Source: a virus
Taxonomy: Duplodnaviria; Caudoviricetes
Direction: 5' to 3' (one strand)
Length of the DNA: 27,229 nucleotides
IMG/VR virus record: IMGVR_UViG_3300017757_000107
Span: 1-27,229 of that record
Part shown: positions 124-25,192 of the stretch, one piece after another
Layout of the letters: every line of letters begins with the position of its first letter
How positions within the stretch are numbered: the stretch's first letter is position 1
Made by a program: the position numbers and the translations under genes
Notes under the pieces: generated by a model
What the model was told of the DNA's origin: nothing
The model's input: only the letters and a program-made list of their open reading frames with translations
The model's database searches: none

Positions 124-735
124 AGAATAATACCGACAGACTTTAACGCTGGTATTGCCTGGATCAAAAAACATTTTCAATTCATAGACAACAGCCAGCT
201 ATATACTTATAAAGAGCTTTTAGCAGAGGCCGTAAGACATAGGACCGTTTTTAAATACGACGGTTTTTTAATAGACCCTTATAATAGTTTAGCAAAAGAT
301 AGGGACATGCTCAAAGGCATAAGCACCCACGAGTACGACTACGAGGCTACAACCGACATGAGACTATTTTGTAAACAATACAGAGTTACTATTTGGCTTT
401 GTACACATGCAAATACAGAGGCTATAAGGCAAGTATATAGAGACGGCCTATACCAAGGCTACCCAAAGACCCCAGAAAGCAGCAGCATTGAGGGGGGCGG
501 CAAATTCGTAAACCGCTGCGATTTTTTCGCAGTATGCCATAGGTTTATACAGCACCCCACAGAGTTTATGAATAGCCAGCTACATATTAAAAAGGTTAAG
601 TCTATAAGCTCTGGCGGTAGATGTACGCCGCTAGACGACCCTATTATGCTAAAAGCAATTACCAACAATGTGGGGTACTCTATCAACAATGAAAGCCTGG
701 TAAAAAAACTCAAAGCAATAAAGTCGCCGTTCTAA
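1..735 (+). CDS. DnaB-like (SF4) helicase, C-terminal part; the gene starts at 26936, about 301 aa in total
   Basis: In frame with 26936-27106. Contains YSSEN, Walker B-like FLIDPYN, LCTH and SSIEGGG..NRCD motifs; Walker A is in the other piece. Confidence 0.85.
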   Translation: MYLMLLYAIKHDQKFLIYSSENEPYELIQRLLEFILEQPINRIIPTDFNAGIAWIKKHFQFIDNSQLYTYKELLAEAVRHRTVFKYDGFLIDPYNSLAKDRDMLKGISTHEYDYEATTDMRLFCKQYRVTIWLCTHANTEAIRQVYRDGLYQGYPKTPESSSIEGGGKFVNRCDFFAVCHRFIQHPTEFMNSQLHIKKVKSISSGGRCTPLDDPIMLKAITNNVGYSINNESLVKKLKAIKSPF

Positions 736-764
736 GTTAGTATTTTTTTTATTAACTTTTAAAC

Positions 765-1358
765 GTGAAAAATTGCGTTTTATCGAAAATACATAAAAAC
801 CATAATATCTGGCTAGACATAGTACAGAGCTTTAAGGTCAATAAAGAGACGGCAAAAGACGTCGTTTCTGAAATGTATATAAACGTGCAAACGCATATAC
901 AGAAAAAAGGCGCAGACATATACTATAACGGCGACGAAATAAACTACTACTTTATATATATATGTTTACGAAACCTAGTCTACGATTTAAAGCGTAAAGA
1001 AAAAAAGGTTAAGTACATAGACATAGACAGTAAAAAACTACAAACCGAAACCGAAGAGTATATCGAAACGCCAGACGGTTACGAAAAATTAAAGTCTATA
1101 ATTGACTGGTACGAAAACCCAGAGTATTTAGAAATGCTAAAAGGCGATACGTACCTAGAAGACTTTACAAGCGACAAAATGCACCTTTACTATTTAAGAC
1201 GTATATTTAAAGAGGTTTTTCTTGACGGTAAAAAATTAGCTAAATTTAGCCGAGAAACTAAAATAGGTTACTGGTCGCTTAGAAATACCTTAAAAACTAT
1301 AAAAAACCAAATAAAAAATGAGTATAAAAATAGGCACGATACTAGAGACAATATTTAA
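765..1358 (+). CDS. ECF/sigma-70-like RNA polymerase sigma factor (probable late sigma)
   Basis: Region 2-like AKDVVSEMY...ICLRNLVYDLKRK and a region 4 HTH-like LAKFSRETKIGYWSLRNTL; GTG start. Confidence 0.7.
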   Translation: MKNCVLSKIHKNHNIWLDIVQSFKVNKETAKDVVSEMYINVQTHIQKKGADIYYNGDEINYYFIYICLRNLVYDLKRKEKKVKYIDIDSKKLQTETEEYIETPDGYEKLKSIIDWYENPEYLEMLKGDTYLEDFTSDKMHLYYLRRIFKEVFLDGKKLAKFSRETKIGYWSLRNTLKTIKNQIKNEYKNRHDTRDNI

Positions 1359-1479
1359 GTATACAGGCGTTAAATGGCTCGTAAAAAAAATAGTCATTGA
1401 CTGGCTAGGCTATGAGAGCTGCGGCTGCGAAGAGCGACGCGACAAGCTAAATTCATTAACTATAAAAAGGCATGAATAA
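1318..1479 (+). CDS. Small Cys-containing protein (53 aa, ...TGVKWLVK...SCGCEERRDKLN)
   Basis: Translated by hand; overlaps both neighbours; CGC motif. Confidence 0.7.
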   Translation: MSIKIGTILETIFKYTGVKWLVKKIVIDWLGYESCGCEERRDKLNSLTIKRHE

Positions 1480-1678
1480 AAAAGACTATCAATACTGGAC
1501 CAAATTTCGAGCTAGCAAGTCTACGTCTATTACAAAAGAAGAGTATACAACAATTTGCCGTATGCACGCAGAGTTTAAAAAGCATGCCTATTTTGAGCCT
1601 TGCAAATGCTCGCCAAAAGGCATACAGCGTTTTATAGACGACATAAACAAAATATATGAACAAAGACAAAACAAATAA
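1472..1678 (+). CDS. Small hypothetical protein with PCKCS motif
   Basis: ORF track; overlaps flanking genes. Confidence 0.7.
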   Translation: MNKKDYQYWTKFRASKSTSITKEEYTTICRMHAEFKKHAYFEPCKCSPKGIQRFIDDINKIYEQRQNK

Positions 1679-2144
1679 ATTCGAGCAAGCCGTTGTAGCT
1701 ATATTAAATATTGACGGCTGGCAGCTAAACTGGTGCGGCGATACAAACAACCTTTACGACGCCGAGGGTTTAACGCCAGAAAAAGAGGGTAAGCGCAATA
1801 AATGCGTTATAGAAATTAAGTTTAGAAACGTATACTATGAAGACAAGCTACTAGAAAAAAACAAATACGACAGTTTAATGGCCCTAGACGACGACATAGT
1901 AAAGCTATATTTTGTTTTTGATCCTAAAGGCAATTACCTATACTGGCTCAATAAATTAAATATGCCAGAGCCGCAAAGCAAAAACCTAGGTAAAACTAGC
2001 CTATGGGCAAACCAAAGAGTAGCCAAAGAAATATACTTATTACCAGAAAGTAAGGCAACCATAATACAAAGAAATTCTAACGAGCGAGCGCAAAAAAGCG
2101 TTTGGGACGAGTACCTTAAAAAACAGCGCAAAATAAGTTTTTGA
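1656..2144 (+). CDS. PD-(D/E)XK-fold nuclease-like protein
   Basis: E...YDA...VIEIKFR catalytic-like motif. Confidence 0.6.
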   Translation: MNKDKTNKFEQAVVAILNIDGWQLNWCGDTNNLYDAEGLTPEKEGKRNKCVIEIKFRNVYYEDKLLEKNKYDSLMALDDDIVKLYFVFDPKGNYLYWLNKLNMPEPQSKNLGKTSLWANQRVAKEIYLLPESKATIIQRNSNERAQKSVWDEYLKKQRKISF

Positions 2145-2188
2145 CATAAAAGGCCATATTTTAACATTTTTTTTTGTAATTTTAGGCT

Positions 2189-2515
2189 ATGGCAAAACAC
2201 GATATAATAGAAGAGCAAAAAAACAACGTATACGACATTGAAGAGCTAGCCTACTTTGGCAGCTTTGAAAAAGCCAGCAACTTACTAATTAACTGGCAAG
2301 CTAAAGCACAAAAGGCAAACAGCGAAAACACTTTAAAAGAGCTTACAGCTTGCGCAGACGCGCTAGCTAGAATAGGTATTTACGTTAGTCAAATGCAAAC
2401 TAGGCAGCGCGAATACGACGTACAGCTAAGTAGGTTTAGAGTAGCCAAACTAGAGGCAGACGCAAAAGCCGAAAAAGCAATACAAGACTTAGAAGACTAT
2501 AAACTACAATTATGA
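2189..2515 (+). CDS. Hypothetical coiled-coil protein
   Basis: 108 aa ORF, helical composition, typical codon usage. Confidence 0.7.
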   Translation: MAKHDIIEEQKNNVYDIEELAYFGSFEKASNLLINWQAKAQKANSENTLKELTACADALARIGIYVSQMQTRQREYDVQLSRFRVAKLEADAKAEKAIQDLEDYKLQL

Positions 2516-2607
2516 ATAAAAAAACCGAATACCAAATAACGTTTTATTCTCTAGTAGCTATACTTATAACTACAGCGTATTTAATATTTGACAGCTGTAC
2601 GTCATGA
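2512..2607 (+). CDS. Small membrane peptide (31 aa)
   Basis: MNKKTEYQITFYSLVAILITTAYLIFDSCTS; ATGA overlaps at both ends; one hydrophobic segment. Confidence 0.55.
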   Translation: MNKKTEYQITFYSLVAILITTAYLIFDSCTS

Positions 2608-2756: not shown

Positions 2757-2845
2757 TGTATCTACCAATTTTGCACCCTTGCCCAGTATGTTTAGGTATA
2801 TGCCTAGCGACATATTTAATACTCAAAAAAAATAAAAAGAAATGA
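2756..2845 (+). CDS. Small peptide (29 aa; HPCPVC, hydrophobic stretch, basic tail)
   Basis: TAATG and ATGA overlaps with neighbours. Confidence 0.5.
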   Translation: MYLPILHPCPVCLGICLATYLILKKNKKK

Positions 2846-3127: not shown

Positions 3128-3924
3128 TGAAAAACGAAATACAACTACTAGACGGCAACTTTTACGACAAAAGCGAGCTATTAAATAAAATGTACGACGA
3201 CGAGTTTTACTACGGCGAGCTGTCAAAACTAGCTTTAAGTAGCTCTAGTCTTAAACTACTTTTAGACAGTCCGAAAACATACTACTACGTTACTAAGTAT
3301 GCAAAAAATGAAACTACCGCGGCATTACGCGCTGGTCATCTATTCCACCTGGCCATTTTAGAGCCTACAAAATACGACAAGATCAAATTTGTTGAGGTGC
3401 AAAGTAGAAACAGTAAAAAGTTTAAAGACGCAGTAGAAGAGTTTGGCGAGGTTTACACAGCAAAAGAGCGCGACGAAAACAATAGACTTATAGACGCTAT
3501 GCTTAAAAACCCTACGGCCCAAGAATTAATAAGAGACAGCAAAAGCGAAGTACCAAAAATATCAAATGTTATGGGTATGCCGTTTAGAGGCAAGGCCGAC
3601 ATATTAAAAAACAAAGGCGGTATCGTAGATTTAAAAACTACCCAAGACGTACAGCATTTTGACAAAAGCGCTTTTAAATATAAATACCACTTACAGGCCG
3701 CAATTTATATAGACCTATTTAGTACGCCAGAAAAACCCTTAACGCATGAAGACTTTACGTTTTTATGCATTTCAAAAAATAATTTAGACATAGGCGTATG
3801 GCGCTGTAGTGAGGCGTTTATAGAATACGGACGCCAGGAATTACGCAAAGGCATAGACTTATATAAAACTTACATACGTGAAGACTTTGACATAAACGAC
3901 TATACAATACAGGGTACCTTATAA
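3127..3924 (+). CDS. RecE/exonuclease VIII-like PD-(D/E)XK exonuclease
   Basis: LSSSSLKLL, G.LFH.AILEP, FRGKADIL, IVDLKTT and YHLQAAIY motifs. Confidence 0.8.
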   Translation: MKNEIQLLDGNFYDKSELLNKMYDDEFYYGELSKLALSSSSLKLLLDSPKTYYYVTKYAKNETTAALRAGHLFHLAILEPTKYDKIKFVEVQSRNSKKFKDAVEEFGEVYTAKERDENNRLIDAMLKNPTAQELIRDSKSEVPKISNVMGMPFRGKADILKNKGGIVDLKTTQDVQHFDKSAFKYKYHLQAAIYIDLFSTPEKPLTHEDFTFLCISKNNLDIGVWRCSEAFIEYGRQELRKGIDLYKTYIREDFDINDYTIQGTL

Positions 3925-4262
3925 TGGAATTTAAAAGTAATTTCGAGTATGACTTAAAAGTCGGCCAGGTAAAAGAAAAACAGCTAGCCGACATACTAGA
4001 AAATAAAACCATTGAAGTAAAAAGCTGTATAGAGGCAGACTTTAATATATTTGTAGAATACGAAAGCCGCGGCAAGCCGTCTGGCATAAACAAAAGTAAA
4101 GCTAACTATTATTGCTTTGTACTAAAAAACGTATTTATATTAATATCACTAAACGACCTAAAAAAGAAATGCGCGCCTTATATGAATACAAAACGTAATG
4201 TAGTAGGCGGCGACAATAATACGTCAAAAGGCATACTACTACCAATTAGAGACTTAAAATAA
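3924..4262 (+). CDS. Small PD-(D/E)XK-like endonuclease-fold protein
   Basis: IEVKS, NIFVEYESRGKPSGI..SKANYY. Confidence 0.55.
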   Translation: MEFKSNFEYDLKVGQVKEKQLADILENKTIEVKSCIEADFNIFVEYESRGKPSGINKSKANYYCFVLKNVFILISLNDLKKKCAPYMNTKRNVVGGDNNTSKGILLPIRDLK

Positions 4263-4411
4263 TGAGACGCAAAAAACTAACCCAGCAAAAGCGTATAGAA
4301 ACCCTAGAGCGAGTAGTCGCCCAGCTATACGTTAAAATCGAAACCTTACATAATATTGTTAAAAAACTTACGCATGAACAACCACAAGAAAATAGCGGAC
4401 CTAGTAATTGA
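4262..4411 (+). CDS. Small hypothetical protein (49 aa)
   Basis: MRRKKLTQQKRIETLERVVAQLY...; TAATG coupling. Confidence 0.6.
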   Translation: MRRKKLTQQKRIETLERVVAQLYVKIETLHNIVKKLTHEQPQENSGPSN

Positions 4412-4781
4412 GTATACAGGCATAGACATATACAGTAATAGAAAAACCCAAGACATAGTAGACGCTAGAGCCTTATTTGAATACATAATGAAACACGACT
4501 ACAACTCGACTTATTCTAAACTGTCGGATCACTACAGAAAAAACGGCAAAGAGCGCAAGCATAGCGTAATGATATATAGCGTTAGAAACTTTGAAAACGA
4601 AATACGACACAGGCGTAAAGACTATAACGAATACTACCAAAATATACTACAAACAGACATAACAGTATTACAATACAAAAACGCCTATAAACTAATAACC
4701 GAAAACTTAAAAAACCAAAAACAACTACGCAAAATACGTAAGTATATTACAGAGGTTTTAGAAGAGCAACCTAAAAACTAA
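4374..4781 (+). CDS. HTH DNA-binding protein resembling the DnaA C-terminal domain IV
   Basis: RKTQDIVDARALFEY...RKHSVMIYSV resembles DnaA R..I..ARQIAMY...RDHSTV; ATG at 4374 preferred over TTG at 4356. Confidence 0.6.
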   Translation: MNNHKKIADLVIEYTGIDIYSNRKTQDIVDARALFEYIMKHDYNSTYSKLSDHYRKNGKERKHSVMIYSVRNFENEIRHRRKDYNEYYQNILQTDITVLQYKNAYKLITENLKNQKQLRKIRKYITEVLEEQPKN

Positions 4782-4797
4782 AAACAACCGTTATATA
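4771..4797 (+). promoter_or_regulatory. Putative phage-sigma late promoter (CTAAA-N13-CGTTATATA)
   Basis: One of five intergenic copies; the terS ATG starts 12 nt after the C of CGTT. Confidence 0.7.
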
Positions 4798-4800
4798 AGT

Positions 4801-5136
4801 ATGGTACGAGACACACAAGACAGTAAAAAAAAGATGCTAGAGGCCCTAGAGTTTAATTTAGGCATAGTATCTACGAGCTGCGCAGTCGCAGACGTAAGTA
4901 GAGCAACCCACTACCGCTGGCTAAAAGAAGACGAAGACTACAAAGCATACGTACAAAACATACACGAGGCCGCTATTGATTTTGTAGAGAGTAAGCTATA
5001 CGAAAAAATAAAGGACAAAGATACCGCAAGTATTATTTTCTATTTAAAGAGCAAAGCAAAGCACCGCGGATATGTAGAGCGCCAGCAAATTGAAGTAGGC
5101 GAGACAAAAGAGTTTACAGTCAAAGTTATAGAATAG
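4801..5136 (+). CDS. terS: Terminase small subunit
   Basis: N-terminal HTH (VSRATHYRWL), IIFYLKSKAKHRGY motif, directly upstream of terL. Confidence 0.8.
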   Translation: MVRDTQDSKKKMLEALEFNLGIVSTSCAVADVSRATHYRWLKEDEDYKAYVQNIHEAAIDFVESKLYEKIKDKDTASIIFYLKSKAKHRGYVERQQIEVGETKEFTVKVIE

Positions 5137-6308
5137 TGCAAATAGATACTAACGTCGTCTGGCGGCACCTAGAAGAGACAGACAAAAAAATAGTTATATG
5201 CCAGGGCGGTACACGTAGCGGCAAAACTTATAATATATTACTATGGCTTATATTTTCTTACAGCCAAAAGTATACAGGCAAAACCATAACAATATTTAGG
5301 GCAACGTACCCAGCTTTACGCGCTACAGTCATGCGCGACTTTTTTGACATACTAAACAAATACGACTTATACAACGAGGCAAAGCATAATAAAAGCAATA
5401 GCGAGTACAGGCTCAACGGCAACCTATTTGAGTTTGTAAGCATAGACCAGGCCAGCAGACTAAAGGGGCGTAAAAGAAACATAGCATTTTTAAATGAGGC
5501 TAACGAGTTAAGCTACTCTAGCTATAGCCAGGTTTTATTTAGGACCGTAGGCACCGACGGCGCCCCAAGTCTAATACTAGACTATAACCCTAGCGACGAG
5601 TATAGCTACATATACACAAAAGTAAAAACACGCGAAGACGCCGCATTTCACATAACCACATACAAAGACAATAAATTTCTAGAGCAAACACTTGTAGACG
5701 AAATAGAGCGCCTAAAAGAAACTGACGAAGATTACTGGCGAGTATACGGCCTGGGTCAAGTAGGACGCAACCGCGCGACTGTATTTAAGTTTAACGAGTG
5801 CGACGAAATACCAGACAGAGCTAAACTAATTGCCAGGGGTCTAGACTGGGGGTTTGTTAATGATCCTAGCGTTTTAGTAGCGACATACGTACTAGATAAT
5901 AATATGTATATAGACGAGCTGTTTTATAAGTACGGCATGACAAACAGAGACATACACAATGAATTAACAAAACTAAACTTAACGCGTGCCGACCAGATAT
6001 TTGCCGACAGCAGCGAGCCAAAGAGTATAGACGAGCTGTACCGCTACGGCTGGAATATTAAGGCAGCGACAAAAGGCAAGGACAGTATTATGCTAGGCAT
6101 TGACTTAATGAAACGCTACAATATATTTATAACTAGCCGCAGCGCAAACACTATACAAGAATTTCGTAATTACAAATGGCTAGAAGACAAAAACGGTAAT
6201 TTGCTAAATAAGCCAGAAGATAAAAATAACCATGCCGTCGATAGTACCAGGTATAGTATTTTTACTAGACTGTCTAGGCCAAACGTAGCTAGGTACGCTA
6301 TAAGATAA
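5136..6308 (+). CDS. terL: Terminase large subunit, PBSX/SPP1-like
   Basis: QGGTRSGKT Walker A, FLNEANE Walker B, DYNP, GLDWGFVNDP, ADSSEPKSI, NHAVDSTRY. Confidence 0.95.
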   Translation: MQIDTNVVWRHLEETDKKIVICQGGTRSGKTYNILLWLIFSYSQKYTGKTITIFRATYPALRATVMRDFFDILNKYDLYNEAKHNKSNSEYRLNGNLFEFVSIDQASRLKGRKRNIAFLNEANELSYSSYSQVLFRTVGTDGAPSLILDYNPSDEYSYIYTKVKTREDAAFHITTYKDNKFLEQTLVDEIERLKETDEDYWRVYGLGQVGRNRATVFKFNECDEIPDRAKLIARGLDWGFVNDPSVLVATYVLDNNMYIDELFYKYGMTNRDIHNELTKLNLTRADQIFADSSEPKSIDELYRYGWNIKAATKGKDSIMLGIDLMKRYNIFITSRSANTIQEFRNYKWLEDKNGNLLNKPEDKNNHAVDSTRYSIFTRLSRPNVARYAIR

Positions 6309-6335: not shown

Positions 6336-6965
6336 ATGAAACTTTTAGAGCTTTTTGCTGGCAGTAGGTCCGTAGGCAAAGAGGCAGAAAAACTAGGCTT
6401 TCAAGTATTTTCGTCAGACATAAACGACTTTGACGGTATAGACTACGTTACTGACATTTTAAATTTTGACATAAATAAACTACCCTTTAAGCCTACAGTA
6501 ATTTGGGCAAGTCCACCCTGTACTACTTATTCGCTTTTACAAGTAAGGCATCATAGAGACAATACTACGCCGAAAACAAAAGACGCCGAGCTAGCAGACG
6601 TAATAGTAAAACATACATTAAATTTAATTAAAGAGCTACAGCCTAAATACTGGTATATAGAAAACCCTAGAGCTATGCTAAGAAAAATGCCTTTTATGTC
6701 TGGCCTACCTAGAGCTACAGTTTGGTATTGTAAGTACGGCGACCATAGGGCCAAGCCTACAGATATTTGGTCCAATAATATATTTAGCCTTTTTAATACT
6801 AACGGCTGGCAGCCTAGGCCTAAATGTTTTAATGGTAATACTAAATGCCACCATAACCCAGCGCCGCGAGGATCAACAACAGGCACGCAAGGTTTTTTAA
6901 CAGACTACGAGCGAAGTATTATACCTGGCGAGCTAGGGCGCGAAATAATGCAAAACAGCAAATAA
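6336..6965 (+). CDS. Compact DNA cytosine-C5 methyltransferase
   Basis: Motif I LELFAG, motif IV ASPPC, motif VI IENP, C-terminal RSIIP; little room for a target-recognition domain. Confidence 0.85.
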   Translation: MKLLELFAGSRSVGKEAEKLGFQVFSSDINDFDGIDYVTDILNFDINKLPFKPTVIWASPPCTTYSLLQVRHHRDNTTPKTKDAELADVIVKHTLNLIKELQPKYWYIENPRAMLRKMPFMSGLPRATVWYCKYGDHRAKPTDIWSNNIFSLFNTNGWQPRPKCFNGNTKCHHNPAPRGSTTGTQGFLTDYERSIIPGELGREIMQNSK

Positions 6966-7151: not shown

Positions 7152-7307
7152 ATGAAAAACTACGACTACAAAGAATTAATTAAAGACGCTGAATTTGAAG
7201 TACAGTATTACGAAAGCGAATACAACAAAGTAGAGGGCAGACTGTTTAGAGCAAAACTAGCTCTAGAGCAGTTACAAATTAGACAAGCTCAAAACGAAAT
7301 AGTATAA
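7152..7307 (+). CDS. Small coiled-coil protein (51 aa)
   Basis: MKNYDYKELIKDAEFEVQYYESEYNKVEGRLFRAKLALEQLQIRQAQNEIV; lies between the RNA and a terminator. Confidence 0.7.
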   Translation: MKNYDYKELIKDAEFEVQYYESEYNKVEGRLFRAKLALEQLQIRQAQNEIV

Positions 7308-7408: not shown

Positions 7409-8026
7409 ATGAAAGTAAATTTAAGAGTACCGACAACCCTAGCAGACATACCGCTACATCAATACCAGCGCTTTATAAAGACGTTCGAAAATACGGACGA
7501 CATGACAGAGGCGTACGCTGGTACTAAAATGCTAGAGATATTTTGCGGCCTAAAAACAGACGAGACTTTACAGCTAAAAGTAAAAGACTTAAAGACAATT
7601 ACGAATAAATTAAATATAGCGCTTTCAGAAAAACCCTTACTAATTACTAGATTTAAAATAGGCGGTACTGAATTCGGCTTTGTACCCCAACTTGACGACT
7701 TAACGTTCGGCGAGTTTGTAGACATAGAAAATAACATAGGCGACTGGGACAATATGCACAAAGCTATGAGCGTACTATATAGACCTATTACAGAGCGCAT
7801 AGACAGCCAGTACCAAATAGAAGAGTATAGAGGCGACAGCTGGCACGACGCTATGTTAAATATGCCAGCAGCTGTAGCAATTAGCGCTATTAATTTTTTT
7901 TTTCTTTTAGAAAACGACTTACTGAAAGTTACGCTACCTTATTCGAGCGAAGCGACGACGGACAAAGCACAGGATCAAAAGCTGACAACTTTAACAGACA
8001 ATGGGGGTGGTACCACAGCTTTATGA
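7409..8026 (+). CDS. Putative tail assembly chaperone (G-like, 0-frame product)
   Basis: First gene of the tail operon; contains a T10 slippery run at 7894-7903. Confidence 0.6.
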   Translation: MKVNLRVPTTLADIPLHQYQRFIKTFENTDDMTEAYAGTKMLEIFCGLKTDETLQLKVKDLKTITNKLNIALSEKPLLITRFKIGGTEFGFVPQLDDLTFGEFVDIENNIGDWDNMHKAMSVLYRPITERIDSQYQIEEYRGDSWHDAMLNMPAAVAISAINFFFLLENDLLKVTLPYSSEATTDKAQDQKLTTLTDNGGGTTAL

Positions 8027-14079: not shown

Positions 14080-14106
14080 CAAAATTTAAAATTAATACGT
14101 TATATA
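14080..14106 (+). promoter_or_regulatory. Putative late promoter CAAAA-N13-CGTTATATA
   Basis: ATG 14110 is 12 nt after the C at 14098. Confidence 0.75.
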
Positions 14107-14109
14107 AAT

Positions 14110-15456: not shown

Positions 15457-15483
15457 CAAAAAAAAACATACTAACGTTATATA
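15457..15483 (+). promoter_or_regulatory. Putative late promoter CAAAA-N13-CGTTATATA
   Basis: ATG 15487 is 12 nt after the C at 15475. Confidence 0.75.
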
Positions 15484-15486
15484 ATT

Positions 15487-15948: not shown

Positions 15949-16413
15949 ATGAGTACAAAAAATAGAGTATTTAGCAGACTGTTTGACGACAAAAAACACG
16001 CTGCGCAATTAAGAGCTGAAAAACGCAAACAAGACAAACTACAAAAAGTAGCTCTAGGTTTAGTAGACGAGCTAGACTACGACTACCAAAGTATAGCAGA
16101 CGAAACTAGTCGCCTATCTTATTCGGTAGACGAATGGTTTGACGAAAAATTTGACGTATGGTTTGATTTAGGCCGCGAAATTTACTCGGTATATTTTCAA
16201 AACAGCGAGGCATTTTTAACGCCAGACGACGTAGCAGACGACAGAGAAAAATTAATGCAAATTAGAGAAAAAGCCGAAGAGCTAGGCTTAACCGCCGAAG
16301 ACGTCTACCCAGAATGGGACAACCACTTACAAGAAATTGACTACCTAGCAACACTAGACCAGCGTTTTATTATGCAACAACAACAATTTAGAGACGAAAG
16401 TAAAAGCGTATAA
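15949..16413 (+). CDS. Acidic paralog 2, candidate internal head protein
   Basis: N-terminus MSTKNRVFSRLFD; KAEELGL motif. Confidence 0.75.
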   Translation: MSTKNRVFSRLFDDKKHAAQLRAEKRKQDKLQKVALGLVDELDYDYQSIADETSRLSYSVDEWFDEKFDVWFDLGREIYSVYFQNSEAFLTPDDVADDREKLMQIREKAEELGLTAEDVYPEWDNHLQEIDYLATLDQRFIMQQQQFRDESKSV

Positions 16414-16415: not shown

Positions 16416-16859
16416 ATGAATACAAACAAAACTATACTGTCTATTTTAGACAAATTTAAACCAGCTAAACAAGCTGTAAAACTAAATGTAGTACAAGACA
16501 TATACGACCTTTACGACAGTTTAAGAGATAGTTATGACATGACTTCTTACTACGCTAACGAAAGGCTAGAAGAGCTACAAAACGAATTTTTTGAAGTAGC
16601 TAACCCAATTCGTTTAGAAATTGACGAAATGGCTATAAATGGTATGCCTAGGTTTTTAGAAGAGGAGGGCGAAAAAATGCAAGCTCTAGTAGGCGAGCTA
16701 GAAAACAAAGCCGAAGAGCTAGGCATTGATCCCAGCGAATTAATACAGGGCTATGACGAGATAATTTTCATGGTAGATAATTACGAGGCCTTATACAGCG
16801 ACTTTATACGTCTATACAGAGAAACTATAAGACAGACAGGTAATAACGACTTTTTATAA
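16416..16859 (+). CDS. Acidic paralog 3, candidate internal head protein
   Basis: KAEELGIDP motif; N-terminus MNTNKTILSILDKFK. Confidence 0.75.
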   Translation: MNTNKTILSILDKFKPAKQAVKLNVVQDIYDLYDSLRDSYDMTSYYANERLEELQNEFFEVANPIRLEIDEMAINGMPRFLEEEGEKMQALVGELENKAEELGIDPSELIQGYDEIIFMVDNYEALYSDFIRLYRETIRQTGNNDFL

Positions 16860-16893: not shown

Positions 16894-17490
16894 ATGAAAG
16901 CAACAGAAATGTTATCGCAAATTAAAACTTTGCTACGTGCTAGAATAGGTTTAGCACAAATGACGCTAGAAGACGGCGAAACAGTTATCGAGGCAGACGC
17001 TTTAGAGGCTGGGCAAGCTGTTTTTATAGTATCTGACGACGAGCGTATCGCTTTGCCAGTAGGCGAGTATACGACAGCTGACGGCCAAATTGTAGTAGTA
17101 GCCGAAGAGGGTACTATCGCAGAGGTTAAGGACGCTATGGAAGTCGAAAAAATGGAAGACAAAGAAGACGAAGAGAAAAAAGAAGAGCTAGAAGAGGTAG
17201 TCGTCGAAGACGTGCCAGAAATAGCAGCCGAAGAGGTAGCAGCTATTGTAGAGGCAGTAGTCGAAGTAGTGGCGCCAGTTTTAGAAGAGGTTAAAGAGCA
17301 AGTAGAAGAGCTTTACAAAAAGTTTGAAGACCAAGAAGACAAAAAAGAAAAAATGTCAAGTCAAAAACCAGCTCGCAAGCCAATGAAACATAACCCAGAG
17401 GCAAAACAAACAGTAAAACAAAACTTATACAGTCAAGGTGCAAATTTCAATACAACCAAAGACAGAGTATTTAGTAAACTATTTAAATAA
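16894..17490 (+). CDS. Capsid scaffolding protein
   Basis: LPVGEY...G domain, Glu-rich coil, HNPE and basic C-terminal peptide; directly upstream of the capsid gene. Confidence 0.7.
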   Translation: MKATEMLSQIKTLLRARIGLAQMTLEDGETVIEADALEAGQAVFIVSDDERIALPVGEYTTADGQIVVVAEEGTIAEVKDAMEVEKMEDKEDEEKKEELEEVVVEDVPEIAAEEVAAIVEAVVEVVAPVLEEVKEQVEELYKKFEDQEDKKEKMSSQKPARKPMKHNPEAKQTVKQNLYSQGANFNTTKDRVFSKLFK

Positions 17491-17520: not shown

Positions 17521-18513
17521 ATGAGAAAAACACACTTACGTACAATTACAGGTAATGGGTCAGTAGATAGTATTACAACTAGCTACGAGGGGCAGTACCT
17601 TGGCGAAATGATATCTGCAGCTTTATTGTCTGGGGACACTATCGACAAAGGCGGTATTACCGTAAAACCAAATGTAAAATACAAAGAAGTAATTAAAAAA
17701 TTGTCTTCTACAGGTATTGTAGGCGACGCAACTTGCGGCTTTGAAGTTACAGCGGATCAAATTACGCTAGAAGAGCGTATTTTAGAAATTAAGCCGTTTC
17801 AAGTAAATTTAGAAATTTGCAAAAAAGACTTTTTAAGCGACTATTTAGCTTTAGAAATGGGCAACAGCGCATACAAAAATTTGCCGTCTTCATTTGCTGA
17901 CTTTATTATGGCTCACGTAGCAGCTAAAGTAGCAGAGAAAACAGAGCAAAATATATGGGGCGGTTTAGGTGCAAACCCTGGCGAGTTTACAGGTATTACT
18001 GTAGAGGCTTTAGCTGACGGTAACGCAAACCAAGTACCAAACGTAACAGCTACAGCTTTTACAGCTGCAAATATTGTAGAAGAGCTAGGCAAAGTAGTAG
18101 ACGCTATACCAGCAGCAGTATATGGCAAAGAAGACTTACACTTATATTTACCAACTGGCGCGTTTCAAAAATACGTTAGAAGTTTAGGCGGTTTTGGTGC
18201 AGTAGCTGGTAACGGCGGCGGCGCTAACGGTGTAGACAATAGAGGCTCACTTTGGTATGATAACGGCGGCTTAACTTTTGAGGGAATTAAAGTATTTAAG
18301 GCCCCAGGTATGCCAGCAGACCACATTGTAGCGGCTGAAAAATCAAACTTATTTTTTGGTACAGCTTTGCTAGACGACATGGGACAGACAAGTGCTAAAT
18401 TGCTAGACATGGCAGACCTTGACGGCTCAGACAATGTTAGAGTAGTACTCAGATTTCAAGCTGGCGTAAATTATGGAGTATCGCAAGATTTAACGCTCTA
18501 TACTTTAGCATAA
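17521..18513 (+). CDS. Major capsid protein
   Basis: 330 aa after the scaffold and followed by a terminator; PNVKYK, LEICKKDF, NIWGG, DGSDNVRVV motifs. Confidence 0.85.
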   Translation: MRKTHLRTITGNGSVDSITTSYEGQYLGEMISAALLSGDTIDKGGITVKPNVKYKEVIKKLSSTGIVGDATCGFEVTADQITLEERILEIKPFQVNLEICKKDFLSDYLALEMGNSAYKNLPSSFADFIMAHVAAKVAEKTEQNIWGGLGANPGEFTGITVEALADGNANQVPNVTATAFTAANIVEELGKVVDAIPAAVYGKEDLHLYLPTGAFQKYVRSLGGFGAVAGNGGGANGVDNRGSLWYDNGGLTFEGIKVFKAPGMPADHIVAAEKSNLFFGTALLDDMGQTSAKLLDMADLDGSDNVRVVLRFQAGVNYGVSQDLTLYTLA

Positions 18514-18599: not shown

Positions 18600-19136
18600 A
18601 TGAGCTGTAATACATTAAGCATAGGACGTACTTTACCCTGTACTAGCTCTGTAGGCGGTATTAAAGCCTTTTACGTTGCCAGCTATGGCACGCTAGGGGC
18701 CTTAAACGTAAGTTCAACTACAGGCGAGCTAGAGACAATAGGGGGTACGCCTACGCTATACAAATACGACGTAGAGGGTAGCAATGGTTTAGAGCAAGCT
18801 ATAACGGCTAGCGCTGAAAACGGCAGCGTCTTTTACGATCAAACTTTAACGGTTACGTTGAAAAAATTAGACAAAGCGACGCAATTCGAGCTACAAGACT
18901 TACTAAAAGCTAGAACGCATATTTTTGTCGAAGACTACAACGAAAACTTTTTTTTAATGGGCGCTACAAATGGGTGCCATAGCTCTGGGGGGTCCATAAC
19001 AACTGGGCAAGCCTACGGCGACTTAAGCGGCTTTAGCGCTATTACTTTTAATGCGCAAGAGACGCTACCAGCATTTTTTACGGCAGCAACAGTAATTACT
19101 GACAATGAGAGTGCATCACAAATTGAGCCAGCATAA
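18600..19136 (+). CDS. Major tail (tube) protein
   Basis: C..S.GR..PC..SVGGIK, ENGSVFYDQTL, TG.A.GDLSG; bracketed by terminators. Confidence 0.7.
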   Translation: MSCNTLSIGRTLPCTSSVGGIKAFYVASYGTLGALNVSSTTGELETIGGTPTLYKYDVEGSNGLEQAITASAENGSVFYDQTLTVTLKKLDKATQFELQDLLKARTHIFVEDYNENFFLMGATNGCHSSGGSITTGQAYGDLSGFSAITFNAQETLPAFFTAATVITDNESASQIEPA

Positions 19137-19203: not shown

Positions 19204-19230
19204 CAAAAAACTAAATTATAACGTTATATA
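19204..19230 (+). promoter_or_regulatory. Putative late promoter CAAAA-N13-CGTTATATA
   Basis: ATG 19234 is 12 nt after the C at 19222. Confidence 0.75.
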
Positions 19231-19233
19231 GAT

Positions 19234-19650
19234 ATGAAAGTATTAAAGCCGACAACTGACGAGCAAACATTTTACTTTATACCGCAAAGTTACGAAATAA
19301 CCGAGTTTTTAAGTTTAAGAGACGACCAAACTAACGAAACCGTAATTTATACTCCTACTATGGTAAAAGAAAACGACTTTATTAAAGTTACTGGCGTTTT
19401 TAATTTAGTAGAGGGTCATTTTTACGACGCCGAGCTAGTTAAAGACTTTGACGTATGGAATACAAATCTAGACTTTTGGCAGCTATCGCAAGACAACTGG
19501 GACGACAGCAAACCGCTATTAAACTTTGTAGTAGATAAAATTTTCTGTACAGACCAAGACATAGACCAGGCGCAAAATAAAAGGTATAGCATAAATAAAG
19601 GCGAATACCAAACGCAAAACACTTTCGACAATGACTATATAGTATTATGA
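19234..19650 (+). CDS. Virion-module hypothetical protein
   Basis: 138 aa, DKIFCTDQ motif, coupled to the portal gene. Confidence 0.6.
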   Translation: MKVLKPTTDEQTFYFIPQSYEITEFLSLRDDQTNETVIYTPTMVKENDFIKVTGVFNLVEGHFYDAELVKDFDVWNTNLDFWQLSQDNWDDSKPLLNFVVDKIFCTDQDIDQAQNKRYSINKGEYQTQNTFDNDYIVL

Positions 19651-21635
19651 AAAAACAACAAAAAAAACCTAGCGTAAAAGGCGGTTTAAAATTTATAAAC
19701 CTAAACACTTATACGTCGCCAGAAATTATAGAAGACAAAAAACAAGCCTGGGTCAGTTATGGCTCTGACAATTTGTACTATAGCTATCTAAACGACCTTT
19801 TTAACGGCTCGCCAACAAATTCGGCAGCTATTAACGGTATTGCGCAGCTTATAGCTGGGCGCGGCGTAGACGCTACAGACAGCAGTAAAAACCCAAACGG
19901 TTACGCTGTAATGAAAAAACTATTTACAGACGAGTGCTTACATAAAATAGCCATAGACTTAAAGCTATTTGGCCAGGCAAGCGTACAGGTAATATATAAC
20001 CAAGAGCGTACGCAAGTCGCGCAAGTGGACCATTTTCCTATAGAAACGTTACGAGCTGAACGCATGAACGAAGACGGCGAAATTGAGGCTTACTACTACA
20101 GCAGCGACTGGGCAGACGTAAAAAACAAAAAAGAATTAAAACGTATACCAGCTTTTGGTATGTCTAGCGAAAGCATAGAAATTTATTGTATTAAACCATA
20201 CAAGCCAGGTTTTTATTATTATTCGCCTGTAGACTACCAGGGGGCAACCCAGTATATAGAAATGGAGTGCGAAATATCAAATTTTCACTTAAACAGCTTA
20301 CTTAACGGTATGGCACCGTCGCTCTTAATGAATATGAATAGCGGCATACCAGACGAAGAGACGCAACGCGAAATAGAACAAAAAATTTACAGTAAATATA
20401 CTGGGACGTCCAATGCTGGACGCATAATTTTAGCTTTCAATAATGGGTCCGAAGAGCAAGCGACAGTCGAAACTATACAGCTGTCAGACGCGCACCAACA
20501 ATATAGTTTTTTGTCAGAAGAAAGCTCTCAAAAAATTATCATAGGCCACAGAATTACGTCGCCTATGCTACTAGGAATTAAAAACAATACTGGCCTAGGA
20601 TCAAACGCCGACGAGCTAGCCAGCGCTAGTATTTTATTTGACAATACCGTAATAAGGCCCTTTCAAGACCTTATTTTAAAATGCTTTGACGCAATACTAG
20701 CCTTTAACGACGTTAGCTTAAACCTATATATAAAGACCTTACAGCCGCTAGAGTTTATAGACTTAGAAAACGCTAGAACGGTAGAAGAGGTAGAAGAGCA
20801 AACAGGGCAAAAATTGTCTATGTCGGCTACAGAAATAGACGGCAAAACGGCTTATAGCACAATAGAAGAGGCCGAAGCTGCAGCCAAAGAAATAGGCTGT
20901 AAAGGACATCACGAACATACAGACGAAGAGGGCCAAACGTGGTACATGCCATGCGAAACGCACGACTTTAAAGCGCCATGCTGGGACGGCTACGAGCAAA
21001 TAGGTACAAAAATAAAAGACGGCGAAACGGTGCCTAATTGCGTACCATTGAGCGACGCCGACAAAATACGTGAAGAGCTATACAAGCGTTTAATGACAAT
21101 AGGCGAAGACGAAGACCTAGAAAATTACGACTTAATAGACGCCAGGCCAGCAAACGAATACGACAGCGTTTTACATAGCAGCTTAAATTTAGCTAGCACA
21201 GTAAGAAGTACGCCAAGTAAAAAGAGCGACCAGGACACTTTAATACTAAAAGTACGCTACGCATACATGGGCAACAACAACCCCCAGCGCGAATTTTGTA
21301 AGAAAATGTTTAACAACAAAATATACCGCGTAGAAGACCTAGACAGCGACAACCCAAACTACAACGGTAACGCTGACGGCGCAAACGCTGGTTTTGGTAT
21401 CGACGGCGCAGACAATTATAACGTCTTTTTGTACAAGGGCGGTCCGAATTGCCGCCATTATTTCGAGCGTAGGGTTTATTTAAGAAAAAACAATAAAAAA
21501 ATTACAGTTACAGAGGCTATTAAAAAAATTAACGAGCTAGACCCAAGTTTAAGGCCCGAGGCGCGTATAATTAAAAACCCAAAAGAAGTAGCTATGTACC
21601 CAGCAAATATGCCAAATAACGGATATTACAGATAA
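19647..21635 (+). CDS. Portal protein with long C-terminal extension (Cys/His modules and a MuF-like domain)
   Basis: YGSDNLY, SPTNSA, YYSPVDY, GTSNAG, GHRITSPMLLG, IRPFQ in the first ~380 aa; later REFCKKM...GGPNCRH. Confidence 0.8.
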   Translation: MKKQQKKPSVKGGLKFINLNTYTSPEIIEDKKQAWVSYGSDNLYYSYLNDLFNGSPTNSAAINGIAQLIAGRGVDATDSSKNPNGYAVMKKLFTDECLHKIAIDLKLFGQASVQVIYNQERTQVAQVDHFPIETLRAERMNEDGEIEAYYYSSDWADVKNKKELKRIPAFGMSSESIEIYCIKPYKPGFYYYSPVDYQGATQYIEMECEISNFHLNSLLNGMAPSLLMNMNSGIPDEETQREIEQKIYSKYTGTSNAGRIILAFNNGSEEQATVETIQLSDAHQQYSFLSEESSQKIIIGHRITSPMLLGIKNNTGLGSNADELASASILFDNTVIRPFQDLILKCFDAILAFNDVSLNLYIKTLQPLEFIDLENARTVEEVEEQTGQKLSMSATEIDGKTAYSTIEEAEAAAKEIGCKGHHEHTDEEGQTWYMPCETHDFKAPCWDGYEQIGTKIKDGETVPNCVPLSDADKIREELYKRLMTIGEDEDLENYDLIDARPANEYDSVLHSSLNLASTVRSTPSKKSDQDTLILKVRYAYMGNNNPQREFCKKMFNNKIYRVEDLDSDNPNYNGNADGANAGFGIDGADNYNVFLYKGGPNCRHYFERRVYLRKNNKKITVTEAIKKINELDPSLRPEARIIKNPKEVAMYPANMPNNGYYR

Positions 21636-21639
21636 AACT

Positions 21640-22238: not shown

Positions 22239-23736
22239 AAAAATATCGCAAACGTATGAGGGTTTATTAAAAACTAGCGACGAAACGCCTTTGTCGGCAA
22301 CGCCGAAAGCAATTACAGACGGTTTAGGTAACAGCTCTGGTATAAAACTAGATACAAACGGCAATTTAGATGCTGGAAATACTATAAGTTTTGGATCACT
22401 TAAAGATACAGCCGAAAACATTACTATAAATAAGTTTATAGACCAGGCAGACGGCATAGTCAATAATGACAATGACACTAGCCTACCTACTAGCGCAGCT
22501 GTAAAAAACTATGTGGACCAGGCAGTAACGGCCGAAGACTTAGACTTTAGCGGCAATAGCGGTACTGGCGACGTAGACCTAGACAGCGAGGCGTTTCAAA
22601 TAACAGGCTCTAACGGCATAACTACAACCGCTTTAGATAATACGCTAGATATTGACGGAAGTACGCTACAAACGTCTATAAACACTAATACAGGCGACAT
22701 TTTAACAAACGCTACTAATATAACAGCCAATACTACATTAATTAACGAGCGTACAGCTGGTATAACAATAGGCGAAACAACTGGCGGCGACAGAGCAAAA
22801 GACTTTACGTTTCAAACTGTAAATTTTGGCGGTACCCCAAATAGTCAGTTTATTATGAGCCAGCAAGGCAAGTTTACTACTAAAAGTTTAAAAGTAGAAA
22901 ACGCCTTAGAAAGTACGGCAGCTGAAAACAAATTTTTAAATAATGGTAGGGTAGAAATAGGCTCAAATCAACAAACGTCTGGCTCTAGTAATTTGTCTTT
23001 AGGTTTAAACAATAATACCAATAGTAACTATACTTTAATAAGTGGCACAGGTAACGCAATACAAAGCTCTGTAAATAGTTTTATAGCTGGCCAAGGTAAC
23101 ACACTAATTGAAAGCCCAGAAGCCGTAGCTTTAGGCGAAAAAAATACTATACAAGACGCGCCTAGTTCTGTAGTTATAGGCGAAAAAAACTTTATAGACG
23201 GCGGCAGCGTAACACAGTCCTCTGTCCGTTCGCAAGCGTTCGGTTTTGGTAATCAAGTAGAGGGGTTTTCAAGTATGGCAGTAGGCGGTCAAAATAAAGT
23301 AACTACTGCACAAACTGGCTTTGCTTTTGGTTTTAAAAATCAAATAGGTGGGGATAGTTCAAATTTTGTAATAGGCGAAAACAACAAACAATTAGTCGGT
23401 AGAGGTGGTTATATGATAGGCGGCAACCTAAACGGCCAAACAAACACTATGGTTTTAGGCTACAGAAATGACATCACGAAAAGACCGACGCCAGACCAAA
23501 CAACAGGCTTATCTGACACTCGTATTGAAATAGGGGTAGGCGACGTAAACGACCATACAGCTATGTTAATTACAGAGGGTGGTGCAACAATAAGCGGCGT
23601 ACCGCAAGTAGCTAGAATAATATTACCTACAATAAAAGAGTTTGACTTTACAGACGACAACGACGCCGCAAATAATGGCATACCAATAGGCGGTTTGTAT
23701 CATTTTAAAGGCGACCTAAAAATACGGCTGGTTTAA
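22219..23736 (+). CDS. Tail fibre/receptor-binding protein with beta-helix-like repeats
   Basis: About 14-residue S..x(A/I)G..N repeats like YadA heads; Thr/Asn/Gly-rich; C-terminal GIPIGGLY. Confidence 0.75.
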   Translation: MSTLTGKKISQTYEGLLKTSDETPLSATPKAITDGLGNSSGIKLDTNGNLDAGNTISFGSLKDTAENITINKFIDQADGIVNNDNDTSLPTSAAVKNYVDQAVTAEDLDFSGNSGTGDVDLDSEAFQITGSNGITTTALDNTLDIDGSTLQTSINTNTGDILTNATNITANTTLINERTAGITIGETTGGDRAKDFTFQTVNFGGTPNSQFIMSQQGKFTTKSLKVENALESTAAENKFLNNGRVEIGSNQQTSGSSNLSLGLNNNTNSNYTLISGTGNAIQSSVNSFIAGQGNTLIESPEAVALGEKNTIQDAPSSVVIGEKNFIDGGSVTQSSVRSQAFGFGNQVEGFSSMAVGGQNKVTTAQTGFAFGFKNQIGGDSSNFVIGENNKQLVGRGGYMIGGNLNGQTNTMVLGYRNDITKRPTPDQTTGLSDTRIEIGVGDVNDHTAMLITEGGATISGVPQVARIILPTIKEFDFTDDNDAANNGIPIGGLYHFKGDLKIRLV

Positions 23737-23739
23737 AAA

Positions 23740-23901: not shown

Positions 23902-24032
23902 AATACATTATTAAAGGCTTACGTTTTTTAGCAAACAAATTAGAAAATTTTAAATGCGCGGTGCATAGAAACTGGAATATGTTTTTAGAGAGCCTTAAAA
24001 GTAAATGCGTATGCGAAAAATTAACAAAATAA
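23898..24032 (+). CDS. Small hypothetical protein (44 aa)
   Basis: MKYIIKGLRFLANKLENFKC...; ATGA overlap. Confidence 0.45.
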   Translation: MKYIIKGLRFLANKLENFKCAVHRNWNMFLESLKSKCVCEKLTK

Positions 24033-24439
24033 TAGTACACTGTACGGCTACGCCAGAGGGTAGAGACGTAAGTATTGACGAAGTAAGACGCTGGCACGTG
24101 GACGGTAGAGGCTGGCGAGACATAGGCTACCATTTTTTGATCCAAAGAGACGGCACAGTAGAAGAGGGGCGGCCAATAGAACAAACAGGCGCACACGTAA
24201 AAGGCGAAAACTGGGACAGCATAGGCGTAGCGTATGTAGGCGGCATGTCTAGCTACGGCGAACAAAGCGAGCCAAAGGACACTAGGACAGACGAACAAAA
24301 AGACGCTCTAATAGAGTTACTTTGCCAATTAAAAGACACTTACGGCGGCTATATATACGGACATAATAATTTTAGTAATAAGGCTTGCCCCTGTTTTGAC
24401 GCAAAAACTGAATACGAAAATATAAGCAATAGATATTAA
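24011..24439 (+). CDS. Endolysin, N-acetylmuramoyl-L-alanine amidase (T7 lysozyme-like)
   Basis: IIVHCTAT, DIGYHF, GAHVKG.N..SIG, GH...NKACPCF; start at 24011 or 24005. Confidence 0.92.
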   Translation: MRKINKIIVHCTATPEGRDVSIDEVRRWHVDGRGWRDIGYHFLIQRDGTVEEGRPIEQTGAHVKGENWDSIGVAYVGGMSSYGEQSEPKDTRTDEQKDALIELLCQLKDTYGGYIYGHNNFSNKACPCFDAKTEYENISNRY

Positions 24440-24589
24440 ATGTTTTTTACTATAATATTATTGTTTCCTAGTAGTTTTATAGTAGGTTTAAATTACTACC
24501 CAGCTGACGAAACGACAGACTTAAACGAAATAAACATATACTTATTTATAATACAAATAAAATACGCCTGGTATGAAAAAAATATTTAA
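24440..24589 (+). CDS. Small hydrophobic protein (49 aa)
   Basis: MFFTIILLFPSSFIVGLNYY...; fills the gap in the lysis cassette. Confidence 0.5.
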   Translation: MFFTIILLFPSSFIVGLNYYPADETTDLNEINIYLFIIQIKYAWYEKNI

Positions 24590-24968
24590 CTGGTTTAGTA
24601 AAGGGGTTATAGGCGAAGTAGGCAAAGTAATAGACGACTTATTTACTAGCGACGAAGAGCGTATACACGCTAAAAACGAAATACTTAAGGTACTTAAACA
24701 ACAGCAATTAGAGTTACAAAAATTACAGACTGAAATTATAGTAGCAGAGGCTAACGGTAATTGGCTACAACGCAGCTGGCGTCCTATCTTAATGCTAGCT
24801 TTTGGTTTTATAGTTATTTACGTAAAATTTTTAGCACCATTATTTAACTTCACTATACCGCCTTTAGAAAACGAGTTTTGGAATTTATTACAAATAGGTA
24901 TAGGCGGCTATGTAATAGGCCGTACAGGCGAGAAAATAGCAAAAGAATACGCTAGTACCAAAAAATAG
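24573..24968 (+). CDS. Holin (3TM holin-like)
   Basis: TSDEER, EA.GNWLQRSWRP, hydrophobic segments, IGGY..GRT.EK. Confidence 0.75.
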   Translation: MKKIFNWFSKGVIGEVGKVIDDLFTSDEERIHAKNEILKVLKQQQLELQKLQTEIIVAEANGNWLQRSWRPILMLAFGFIVIYVKFLAPLFNFTIPPLENEFWNLLQIGIGGYVIGRTGEKIAKEYASTKK

Positions 24969-24971
24969 GTT

Positions 24972-24992
24972 AAGGCCCTTAAAAGGCCTTTA
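24972..24992. terminator. Short hairpin ending the late region
   Basis: aaggcc-cttaaaa-ggcctt; weak T tail. Confidence 0.35.
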
Positions 24993-24999
24993 AAACGGT

Positions 25000-25100
25000 T
25001 ATACTAGTATATGTATATTCTAGTATATATATAGTAGTCTAGTATATAGTAGTATTTATATATAGTAGTTATATACAGTAGTCTACTATATAGTAGTATA
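25000..25100. repeat. Iteron-like TATATAGTAGT repeats and palindromes; candidate replication origin
   Basis: Copies at 25028, 25043, 25059, 25072 (1 mismatch) and 25087; palindromes at 25000-25011 and 25083-25096. Confidence 0.6.
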
Positions 25101-25192
25101 AAATATAAATAGTTTGCCAAACGGCAAATTTTTTTTTCTATTTTTTTATAAATTATAATTTCATAGTTTTACGCTAGGATCAAAAAAGCATA

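Follow-up and report, generated by a model that had tools for sequence, protein, structure and literature searches.

Phosphorothioate (PT) defences provide the closest described parallels to the pattern examined here, an evenly spaced row of GATC sites (the lattice) in a 27,229-nt stretch of viral DNA (the window; positions 1 to 27,229 of IMG/VR record IMGVR_UViG_3300017757_000107, from a virus of the Caudoviricetes). DndCDEA-PbeABCD, described for Haloterrigena jeotgali A29 and three other haloarchaea, shares the GATC core with the window: as far as the cited part of PMC6459918 goes, the archaeal DndCDEA marks GpsATC with a preference for tGATCc, and a virus carrying the PT mark escapes PbeABCD. 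A further likeness is the presence of pbeA/pbeC-like genes beside dndCDE in one flavobacterial locus. On the other hand, the archaeal marks are placed on a GATC-rich chromosome (1.4–2.6% modified), the same part of PMC6459918 describes no virus that spaces its acceptors, and the present phage is known from sequence alone. DndBCDE-DndFGH/DndI systems likewise offer a translocating or scanning nuclease silenced by PT, about one PT site per kb and GATC-specific versions (cited parts of PMC11662687, PMC10470545, PMC6435447 and PMC9521924), but their best-studied versions mark GAAC/GTTC, for which the window has no such lattice.

Other described systems resemble the lattice in single respects. Dam/MutH mismatch repair of Escherichia coli (in the cited parts of PMC4786541 and PMC5014478) uses GATC in either orientation and within a maximum working distance, but repair-type MutH was absent from the 201 Flavobacteriales genomes searched for it. 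Phage restriction-site avoidance, as treated in part of PMC12707154, is similar in that dozens of motifs, along with GATC in most contexts, have been purged from the close clade of our phage, and many relatives purge GATC fully; it differs in that one context is kept here at neutral density, with even spacing and a ceiling on gap length. Plain avoidance, in which the remaining sites are random, fits just the non-GGATCA contexts and the relatives without GATC. Chi-type self signals and ParB/KorB-type lattices are short words that persist in genes throughout the genome despite what they cost in coding. The phage sites differ from Chi-type signals in having no orientation bias (49 plus, 42 minus), in the rarity of close pairs and in that excess copies are removed, not gained; they differ from ParB/KorB/Noc sites in consisting of a 6-bp motif with a weak A/T-rich flank and no long palindrome, and no ParB-like family was found among 34 proteins (Pfam) or 27 (PHROGs). 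Our literature searches, in which matches were mostly judged by title or the start of the abstract and few subscription papers were covered, found no description of evenly spaced GATC in phage genomes, and we know of no case in which mismatch repair selects for such spacing in a phage. The lattice described below is genuine and under selection, it spans the lineage, and known forms of avoidance do not account for it.

Even spacing of GATC in the window

A 123-bp terminal direct repeat (positions 1–123, identical to 27107–27229) indicates that the window holds a complete circular genome of 27,106 bp, and GATC was counted, and gaps measured, on that circle. There are exactly 19 GATC sites, each reading GATCA on one strand, and 17 of them are GGATCA. 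The initial annotation of the window, made by a model from the letters alone, had reported this number and context by manual scan; the computed count and gap list found every coordinate and all 19 gaps correct and no site missed.

On the plus strand, GGATCA is found at 161–166 (helicase gene, read as Trp-Ile-Lys), 4526–4531 (a gene for a DnaA-domain-IV-like helix-turn-helix, HTH, protein), 6870–6875 (C5-methyltransferase-like gene), 7972–7977, 9995–10000, 11202–11207 (putative tail gene, 717 aa), 13260–13265 (putative tape-measure gene), 14578–14583 (prohead protease gene), 17754–17759 (putative major capsid gene), 20598–20603 (portal gene), 22393–22398 and 25177–25182, the last being the sole intergenic site. 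Minus-strand copies lie at 1919–1924 (PD-(D/E)XK-like nuclease gene, Asp-Pro), 5861–5866 (terminase large subunit gene, Asp-Pro), 15795–15800, 16727–16732 and 24138–24143 (amidase gene). The two variants, both on the plus strand, are AGATCA at 3380–3385 (exonuclease VIII-like gene), which fills a 2607-bp GGATCA gap, and CGATCA at 18836–18841, which fills one of 2844 bp.

The circular gaps run from 932 to 2090 bp, with a coefficient of variation (CV) of 0.27 and a density of 0.70 sites/kb. For randomly placed sites, the analytic probability of a minimum gap of at least 932 bp is 5.2e-9, in line with the value of about 1e-8 estimated in the initial annotation, and none of 2,000,000 random placements reached the observed minimum gap or CV. 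Among 2757 words scanned (4–7 nt, at least 8 copies), GATC/GATCA had the lowest gap CV. Synonymous-codon shuffling, the control that had been proposed along with the claim, never gave equally even spacing: the lowest CV in 3000 shuffles was 0.38, and in 4000 shuffles the minimum gap was at least 932 bp in 28, the maximum at most 2090 bp in none, and a minimum of at least 932 bp together with a maximum of at most 3000 bp was likewise seen in none.

As had been proposed, the sites lie in unrelated genes (18 of 19 are genic, in all three codon phases) and draw on codons that are rare in this genome: GAT is used 58 times versus 494 for GAC, ATC for 24 of 577 Ile and GGA for 36 of 500 Gly. GGATCA is nevertheless present 17 times against a codon-shuffled expectation of 2.4±1.2 (7-fold), while total GATC (19 against 15) is close to expectation, which indicates that other contexts were purged and GGATCA was kept. 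With 0.63/kb, GGATCA is not denser than in 12 GATC-rich relatives (0.33–1.09/kb); its density stays roughly neutral, and what has changed is the spacing.

What is spaced is GATC as such, with GGATCA as the preferred context. GGATCA accounts for 63 of 94 independent site clusters, and the 28 variant GATC sites found in 11 genomes all lie at least 444 bp from any GGATCA (mean distance 1044 bp versus 522 bp for random positions), with none closer than 300 bp where 9.6 were expected. Since the variants keep their distance from GGATCA, any GATC counts. None of the 12 single mismatches inside the core is enriched (0–1.3x), pointing to an all-or-none core of the kind expected for an enzyme target. 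The mixed orientation goes with no strand or replichore bias, and a search for a longer or bipartite motif found no distant conserved element within 40 bp, only the weak A/T-rich flank. The rarity of TGATCA and GGATCC is to be expected given a general avoidance of 6-bp palindromes in the clade (median observed/expected 0.23).

Motif avoidance is extreme. In the window and its close clade 36 pentamers are near zero, far more than in sister lineages; the avoided words include CCGG, CCCG, GANTC, GGATG, GATGG, GTCAC, GGTGA, CCTGC, GCTCC and CAATC, and the trimers ATC, GGA and CAC stand at 0.4–0.46.

Site turnover among relatives and the limits on gap length

Relatives were collected by capsid, terminase and protease searches (the best 80 of about 530–600 matches per large scan) and from five fuller records; the first four scans gave 106 sequences of at least 11 kb, 80 of them non-redundant (16 in the close clade, 64 outside); a search with the tail protein returned no matches. 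GATC spacing is significantly even (p<0.01) in 12 of the 16 close-clade loci, the exceptions being L001, L008 and L196 (decayed), and L097, which has no GATC in 13.5 kb. Outside the clade, 27 of 64 loci have at most one GATC, and even spacing at the same threshold is seen in 7 of the 36 loci with at least four. The cultured relative P12024S has 82 GATC, irregularly placed. Two further loci (L300 and L301) have strongly clustered GATC (CV about 2, with a 3.5-kb free stretch), which suggests mosaic segments from GATC-free lineages.

The spacing is conserved while the positions are not, a point on which the initial annotation had proposed a test. A genome 93.5% identical to the window (G001) keeps 15 of 17 aligned window sites; it has lost the site at 22393–22398 and has a new one 53 bp off. 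At 77–79% identity, only 4/14, 3/13, 4/10, 3/10, 3/10 and 4/10 sites are kept (G002–G005, L171 and L174). Conserved positions include 1919–1924 (18 sites in the cluster), one of the most conserved, and 5861–5866 (21 sites in the cluster). Replacement of lost sites in place was considered and rejected: for 29 lost sites, the closest site of the relative is 525 bp away, against a null of 450 bp (P 0.90). The lattice re-tiles instead of replacing lost sites locally. Purging GATC is easy and quick when favoured: all five aligned GATC sites of L196 are gone in L097, which is 95% identical to it, four of them through synonymous change. No substitute lattice word stands out in the zero-GATC relatives (4–6-mers, 80 loci).

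The zero-GATC relatives bear directly on the possibility that the sites are core signals, such as primase or DnaA sites, pac or nick sites, or −35 boxes of an extracytoplasmic function (ECF) sigma factor (TGATCC-N16-CGT). Okazaki fragments are about as long as the lattice spacing. This resemblance speaks for a priming role, as does a helicase gene in a phage whose Pfam/PHROGs annotation has no recognisable primase gene. Relatives with near-identical helicase and terminase nevertheless have no GATC: the zero-GATC L097 is 100% identical to the lattice member L174 over the shared part of the helicase and 98% identical in terminase. Together with the 27 outgroup loci with at most one GATC, this makes a core role in packaging or priming less plausible. 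Sites on both strands and the lack of strand or replichore bias likewise disfavour packaging, ejection, priming and T5-like programmed nicks, all of which had been among the roles first suggested, and the promoter variant fails in that CGT follows at spacer 16 in 0 of 65 independent TGATCC sites, with no other conserved element within 40 bp. The core-signal explanation, largely refuted by these clade members, now seems very improbable. Of the roles first suggested, a modification mark that the host must meet within a set distance fits best.

Gap modelling used 104 gaps pooled from seven related genomes, and so not fully independent. They have a mean of 1416 bp, a standard deviation of 573 bp and a range of 234–2964 bp, with a lag-1 correlation of −0.07. 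By the Akaike information criterion (AIC), the pool is fitted best by soft repulsion with free parameters (1614), a gamma distribution (1615) and a truncated normal (1619); a hard ceiling (1666), a hard core (1684) and an exponential (1719) fall behind these by about 48–105 units and do not fit. A strict minimal cover was rejected because it needs a negative correlation between neighbouring gaps, and because a minimum gap of at least 932 bp arises with a simulated probability of only 0.01. Repulsion alone at neutral density predicts that 14–44 of the 104 gaps exceed 3 kb, and none does. Long and short gaps are both selected against.

These fits also weigh on an explanation by negative selection only, in which two-site enzymes punish close GATC pairs, other enzymes purge contexts, and isolated GGATCA sites drift in. 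Sau3AI-type enzymes need two sites. Such systems occur in Flavobacteriales, the likely host order; 36 pentamers are avoided almost entirely in the clade, and 6-bp palindromes are avoided in general; the GGATCA density matches that of unselected relatives; and the CV of the window is not unusual (P 0.19) for exactly 19 sites placed with an exclusion of 930 bp. Exclusion should, however, cut the density and leave a long tail of gaps, and the tail is missing; the hard-core fit is 69 AIC units worse than the gamma; and full purging is quickly reachable, as shown by the L196-to-L097 loss and the many outgroup loci with at most one GATC. We regard this explanation as improbable, and give about the same low weight to anything outside the five explanations considered in this paper. 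The codon shuffles, the turnover of positions and the gap modelling together support the original proposal that selection maintains one site per 1–2 kb and removes the rest, unlike simple avoidance.

A host self-mark and its alternatives

The closest cultured matches of the phage are flavobacterial phages: its capsid (28%) and portal (39%) match Nonlabens phages P12024L/S best, its terminase Flavobacterium phages (37%), and its helicase matches phages of Maribacter and Cellulophaga. These matches point to a flavobacterial host. More than half of the sampled window words were found in two sequencing runs labelled marine metagenome, and none of the runs listed as containing window words was an RNA run; contigs from the two runs shed no light on the mechanism.

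We think that a host self-mark of some kind, PT or methyl, probably underlies the lattice. Our favoured but tentative reading is that the evenly spaced GATC sites are acceptors for a Dnd-type PT self-mark. The host would be a flavobacterium with dndCDE of GATC specificity, the progeny would be marked during growth, TGATCC best, and, with the sites thinned and evenly spread, a host nuclease that scans the entering DNA would come upon a mark within about 1–1.5 kb and stand down. Damage by a translocating effector (DndFGH-, Pbe- or HerA-like) would grow in proportion to how far off the next mark lies, so that long gaps would be penalised. A per-site cost, from Sau3AI-kind GATC cutters or from PT-dependent nucleases in other hosts, would remove sites that contribute little to the coverage. 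If the cost of a gap is convex in its length and each site also has a cost, the peaked, uncorrelated gap distribution that is observed would follow; both of its edges would be expected from a scanner that loads at random and goes on damaging the DNA up to the first mark. Where the host lacks the system, the lattice would decay or be purged.

The top context, though not the ranking of the others, agrees with this reading. Among 16 flank contexts, tGATCc, which reads GGATCA on the other strand, has the highest PT modification in each of four archaeal Dnd hosts (17.8, 22.8, 13.9 and 13.4%; Supplementary Table 1 of PMC6459918), and TGATCC makes up 91 of 111 GATC sites in seven lattice genomes versus 136 of 739 in GATC-rich relatives. 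According to the cited parts of the literature, GpsATC is a known PT consensus (PMC9521924, PMC6459918) and that of tdp, Salmonella Dnd marks GAAC, GTTC and GATC alike (PMC12914056), and a GATC-specific Dnd system restricts phage (PMC10470545). The lattice density of 0.70/kb compares with about 0.84 PT sites/kb, placed with flank preferences, as given in part of PMC9521924; E. coli B7A has 4855 sites 0.1–10 kb apart (part of PMC6435447), and the PT level is held constant (part of PMC12707154). According to the cited part of PMC11662687, PT halts the translocation of DndFGH and frees DndI; that part leaves open how unmarked stretches are spared and how PT defences tell self from non-self with only 10–15% of motifs marked.

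dndD is present in 10 of 301 Flavobacteriales genomes. In six annotated flavobacterial dnd loci, 31 of whose open reading frames (ORFs) were scanned in PADLOC, DndE is fused to a HerA/DptH-like ATPase in four, pbeA/pbeC neighbours occur in one and dndCDE stands alone in one; no full dndFGH was seen in the six, for the part of the ORFs scanned. The compact arrangement, dndC-dndD followed by a 510–530-aa DndE-HerA/DptH-like fusion amid housekeeping genes (L285:1756–3291, L286:7659–9224, L288:10864–12441 and L289:7262–8839), is a possible minimal PT defence. Candidates for the per-site cost are Sau3AI-like restriction-modification systems (3 of 201 Flavobacteriales) and PT-dependent nucleases (4 of 251).

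Several observations weigh against the PT reading. dndD occurs in just about 3% of the sampled Flavobacteriales, and the motif of a dndD-bearing flavobacterium may differ from GATC. The enzymes behind the flank match are distant, archaeal ones, and the match could arise by luck with a chance of 1 in 6 to 1 in 10; the rank of the other contexts does not track the PT table (Spearman 0.49, p 0.33, for six non-palindromes; 0.12 for all ten), the archaeal preference is mild and modification partial, at most 23% (in the cited part of PMC6459918), and E. coli B7A has no strict flank constraint as far as the cited part of PMC6435447 describes it. With partial modification, few of the 19 sites might bear a mark, unless some control of density ensures that they are filled. 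No lattice is formed here by GAAC/GTTC, which Salmonella modifies together with GATC (part of PMC12914056). The search for a host among genome contigs gave just five distant matches, and among 401 Flavobacteriales genomes only distant phage fragments and short chance matches. One dnd+ genome, G224, has GATC-free stretches of up to 16 kb. Among the phages, L001 (91% identical to the window; outside the gap pool) has one 3429-bp gap and spacing at p 0.06, and separate AGATC lattices exist in distant lineages (L139/L019 with CV 0.30, L146 and L186); in L139, GGATCA adjoins AGATC lattice sites with no exclusion. A last such point, the co-variation of a phage nuclease with the lattice, is taken up below.

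G224 itself was considered as the host and rejected. It looked similar over 20 kb, yet G224 avoids GGCC, GCGC and ACGT, its correlation with the lattice clade is low (rho 0.17), and among 41 relatives no DNA matching it was found.

The same logic could apply to another mark: a host Dam-like or other GATC methyltransferase, with a distance-limited reader that needs one site per couple of kb, either a helicase-based defence of the DISARM, Druantia or solitary-Pbe kind or methyl-directed repair. GATC is the commonest methylated motif in marine metagenome-assembled genomes (part of PMC8919816) and is methylated in some tailed-phage genomes (part of PMC9516812), base-modifying neighbours accompany 155 of 320 solitary PbeAC (part of PMC6459918), and D12-class adenine methyltransferases occur in 54 of 301 Flavobacteriales, a match of class whose specificity may not be GATC. 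Near-complete methylation would also mean that few sites suffice. Mismatch repair in E. coli depends on a GATC no further off than a certain distance, and extra sites bring no gain (part of PMC4786541), and added GATC lowers the mutation rate of phiX174 (part of PMC5014478). The three MutH-domain matches in 201 Flavobacteriales are, however, 450–480-aa Sau3AI-type restriction proteins beside C5 methyltransferases and not repair MutH; the one compared with the Protein Data Bank (PDB) is Sau3AI-like (E 8e-78). A saturating methyltransferase also leaves the strong GGATCA preference unexplained. The C5-methyltransferase gene of the phage, which is absent from 7 of 14 lattice loci covering its position, was ruled out as the writer by this patchy distribution. 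On this evidence we consider a methyl mark unlikely.

The reader could instead be encoded by the phage. The PD-(D/E)XK-like nuclease (1656–2144, plus strand) might nick GATC to start recombination-dependent replication or repair, or an HTH or 51-aa protein might dock there. In ESM Atlas the nuclease lies close (0.96) to a cluster in which 65% of the members carry the family PDDEXK_14, and a profile comparison with the PDB gave no match. The loop ahead of its catalytic site varies together with the GGATCA lattice: at the position four residues upstream of the catalytic Asp, an Asn is found in 15 of 15 GGATCA-lattice rows and in L139 and L242, and in 0 of 56 others (73 redundant loci). Between L174 and L097 the nuclease is only 78% identical despite the near-identical helicase and terminase, and in the nuclease tree L174 joins the lattice clade (support 90). 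The 51-aa protein (7152–7307, plus strand; no known family, and none in ESM Atlas) is encoded in all lattice loci covering its place and in no zero-GATC locus, and the GGATCA and AGATC dialects could reflect co-evolution. The HTH protein (4356–4781, plus strand; Pfam Bac_DnaA_C, E 5e-5, below the curated cut-off) is a weaker candidate.

The independent contrasts are, however, few, and the nuclease change is confounded with an apparent host shift. Two separate cassettes are common to L097, L196 and L116 and the non-lattice L104/L105 lineage, which suggests that L097, L196 and L116 changed hosts, and the same events altered the nuclease and removed the 51-aa gene. The same nuclease loop accompanies 0 or 13 GATC (L104 versus L105), 0 or 8 (L097 versus L196), and both even and uneven AGATC (L186 versus L140). 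Four loci in which no lattice is clear carry the 51-aa gene too, L100, L107 and L111 having none, the HTH recognition helix is almost alike in L097 and lattice members, and zero-GATC relatives have not replaced GATC by another lattice word. A phage-encoded reader is therefore, in our view, a doubtful explanation, though one to be kept in mind.

If the PT reading holds, the phage would escape by gaining the host's own mark through site spacing alone, and a tuned acceptor spacing would give the scanning distance as a number. It is possible, if somewhat short of probable, that phages beat mark-sensing scanners by genome architecture, laying out a minimal even row of the host's best PT acceptors in synonymous codons. 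If so, the lattice period (about 1.4 kb, with a ceiling of about 3 kb) would directly reflect how far the host effector scans, and lattice dialects would reveal the mark-writing enzyme that each phage lineage encounters. Defence systems could then be assigned to the hosts of uncultured phages from sequence alone. Such spacing would also be the positive-selection counterpart of restriction-site avoidance, needing no anti-defence protein, and lattices of this kind might be a general form of counter-defence that has so far gone unrecognised in viruses of bacteria and archaea. Even if the reader were a methyl-sensing system or a phage nuclease, some process would measure kilobase distances along the DNA and shape codon choice genome-wide.

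Other features of the genome

Almost all genes lie on a single strand, and the gene content includes a helicase, an exonuclease VIII-like protein, terminase, a C5-methyltransferase-like protein, protease, portal, amidase, holin and NinG. A second nuclease-like ORF (3924–4262; phrog_13596) is confined to the close clade, the same group that lacks GANTC. An AT-rich intergenic stretch with nested inverted repeats (25024–25111), upstream of ninG, is a possible origin.

Three acidic paralogues (D+E 21–23%) are encoded between the protease and the scaffold, at 15487–15942, 15949–16413 and 16416–16859, and vary strongly among relatives. Two of them start with an RVF-x-x-LF motif, the same motif that is found at the end of the scaffold protein (17455–17490). 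They look like capsid-targeted internal proteins, for which the internal proteins of T4 offer a comparison, and are possibly DNA mimics.

Immediately 5' of four packaging and structural genes stands CGTTATATA-N3-ATG (4789–4803, 14098–14112, 15475–15489 and 19222–19236), where 0.08 occurrences are expected by chance. The element is kept in relatives and is likely a late promoter that yields leaderless messages.

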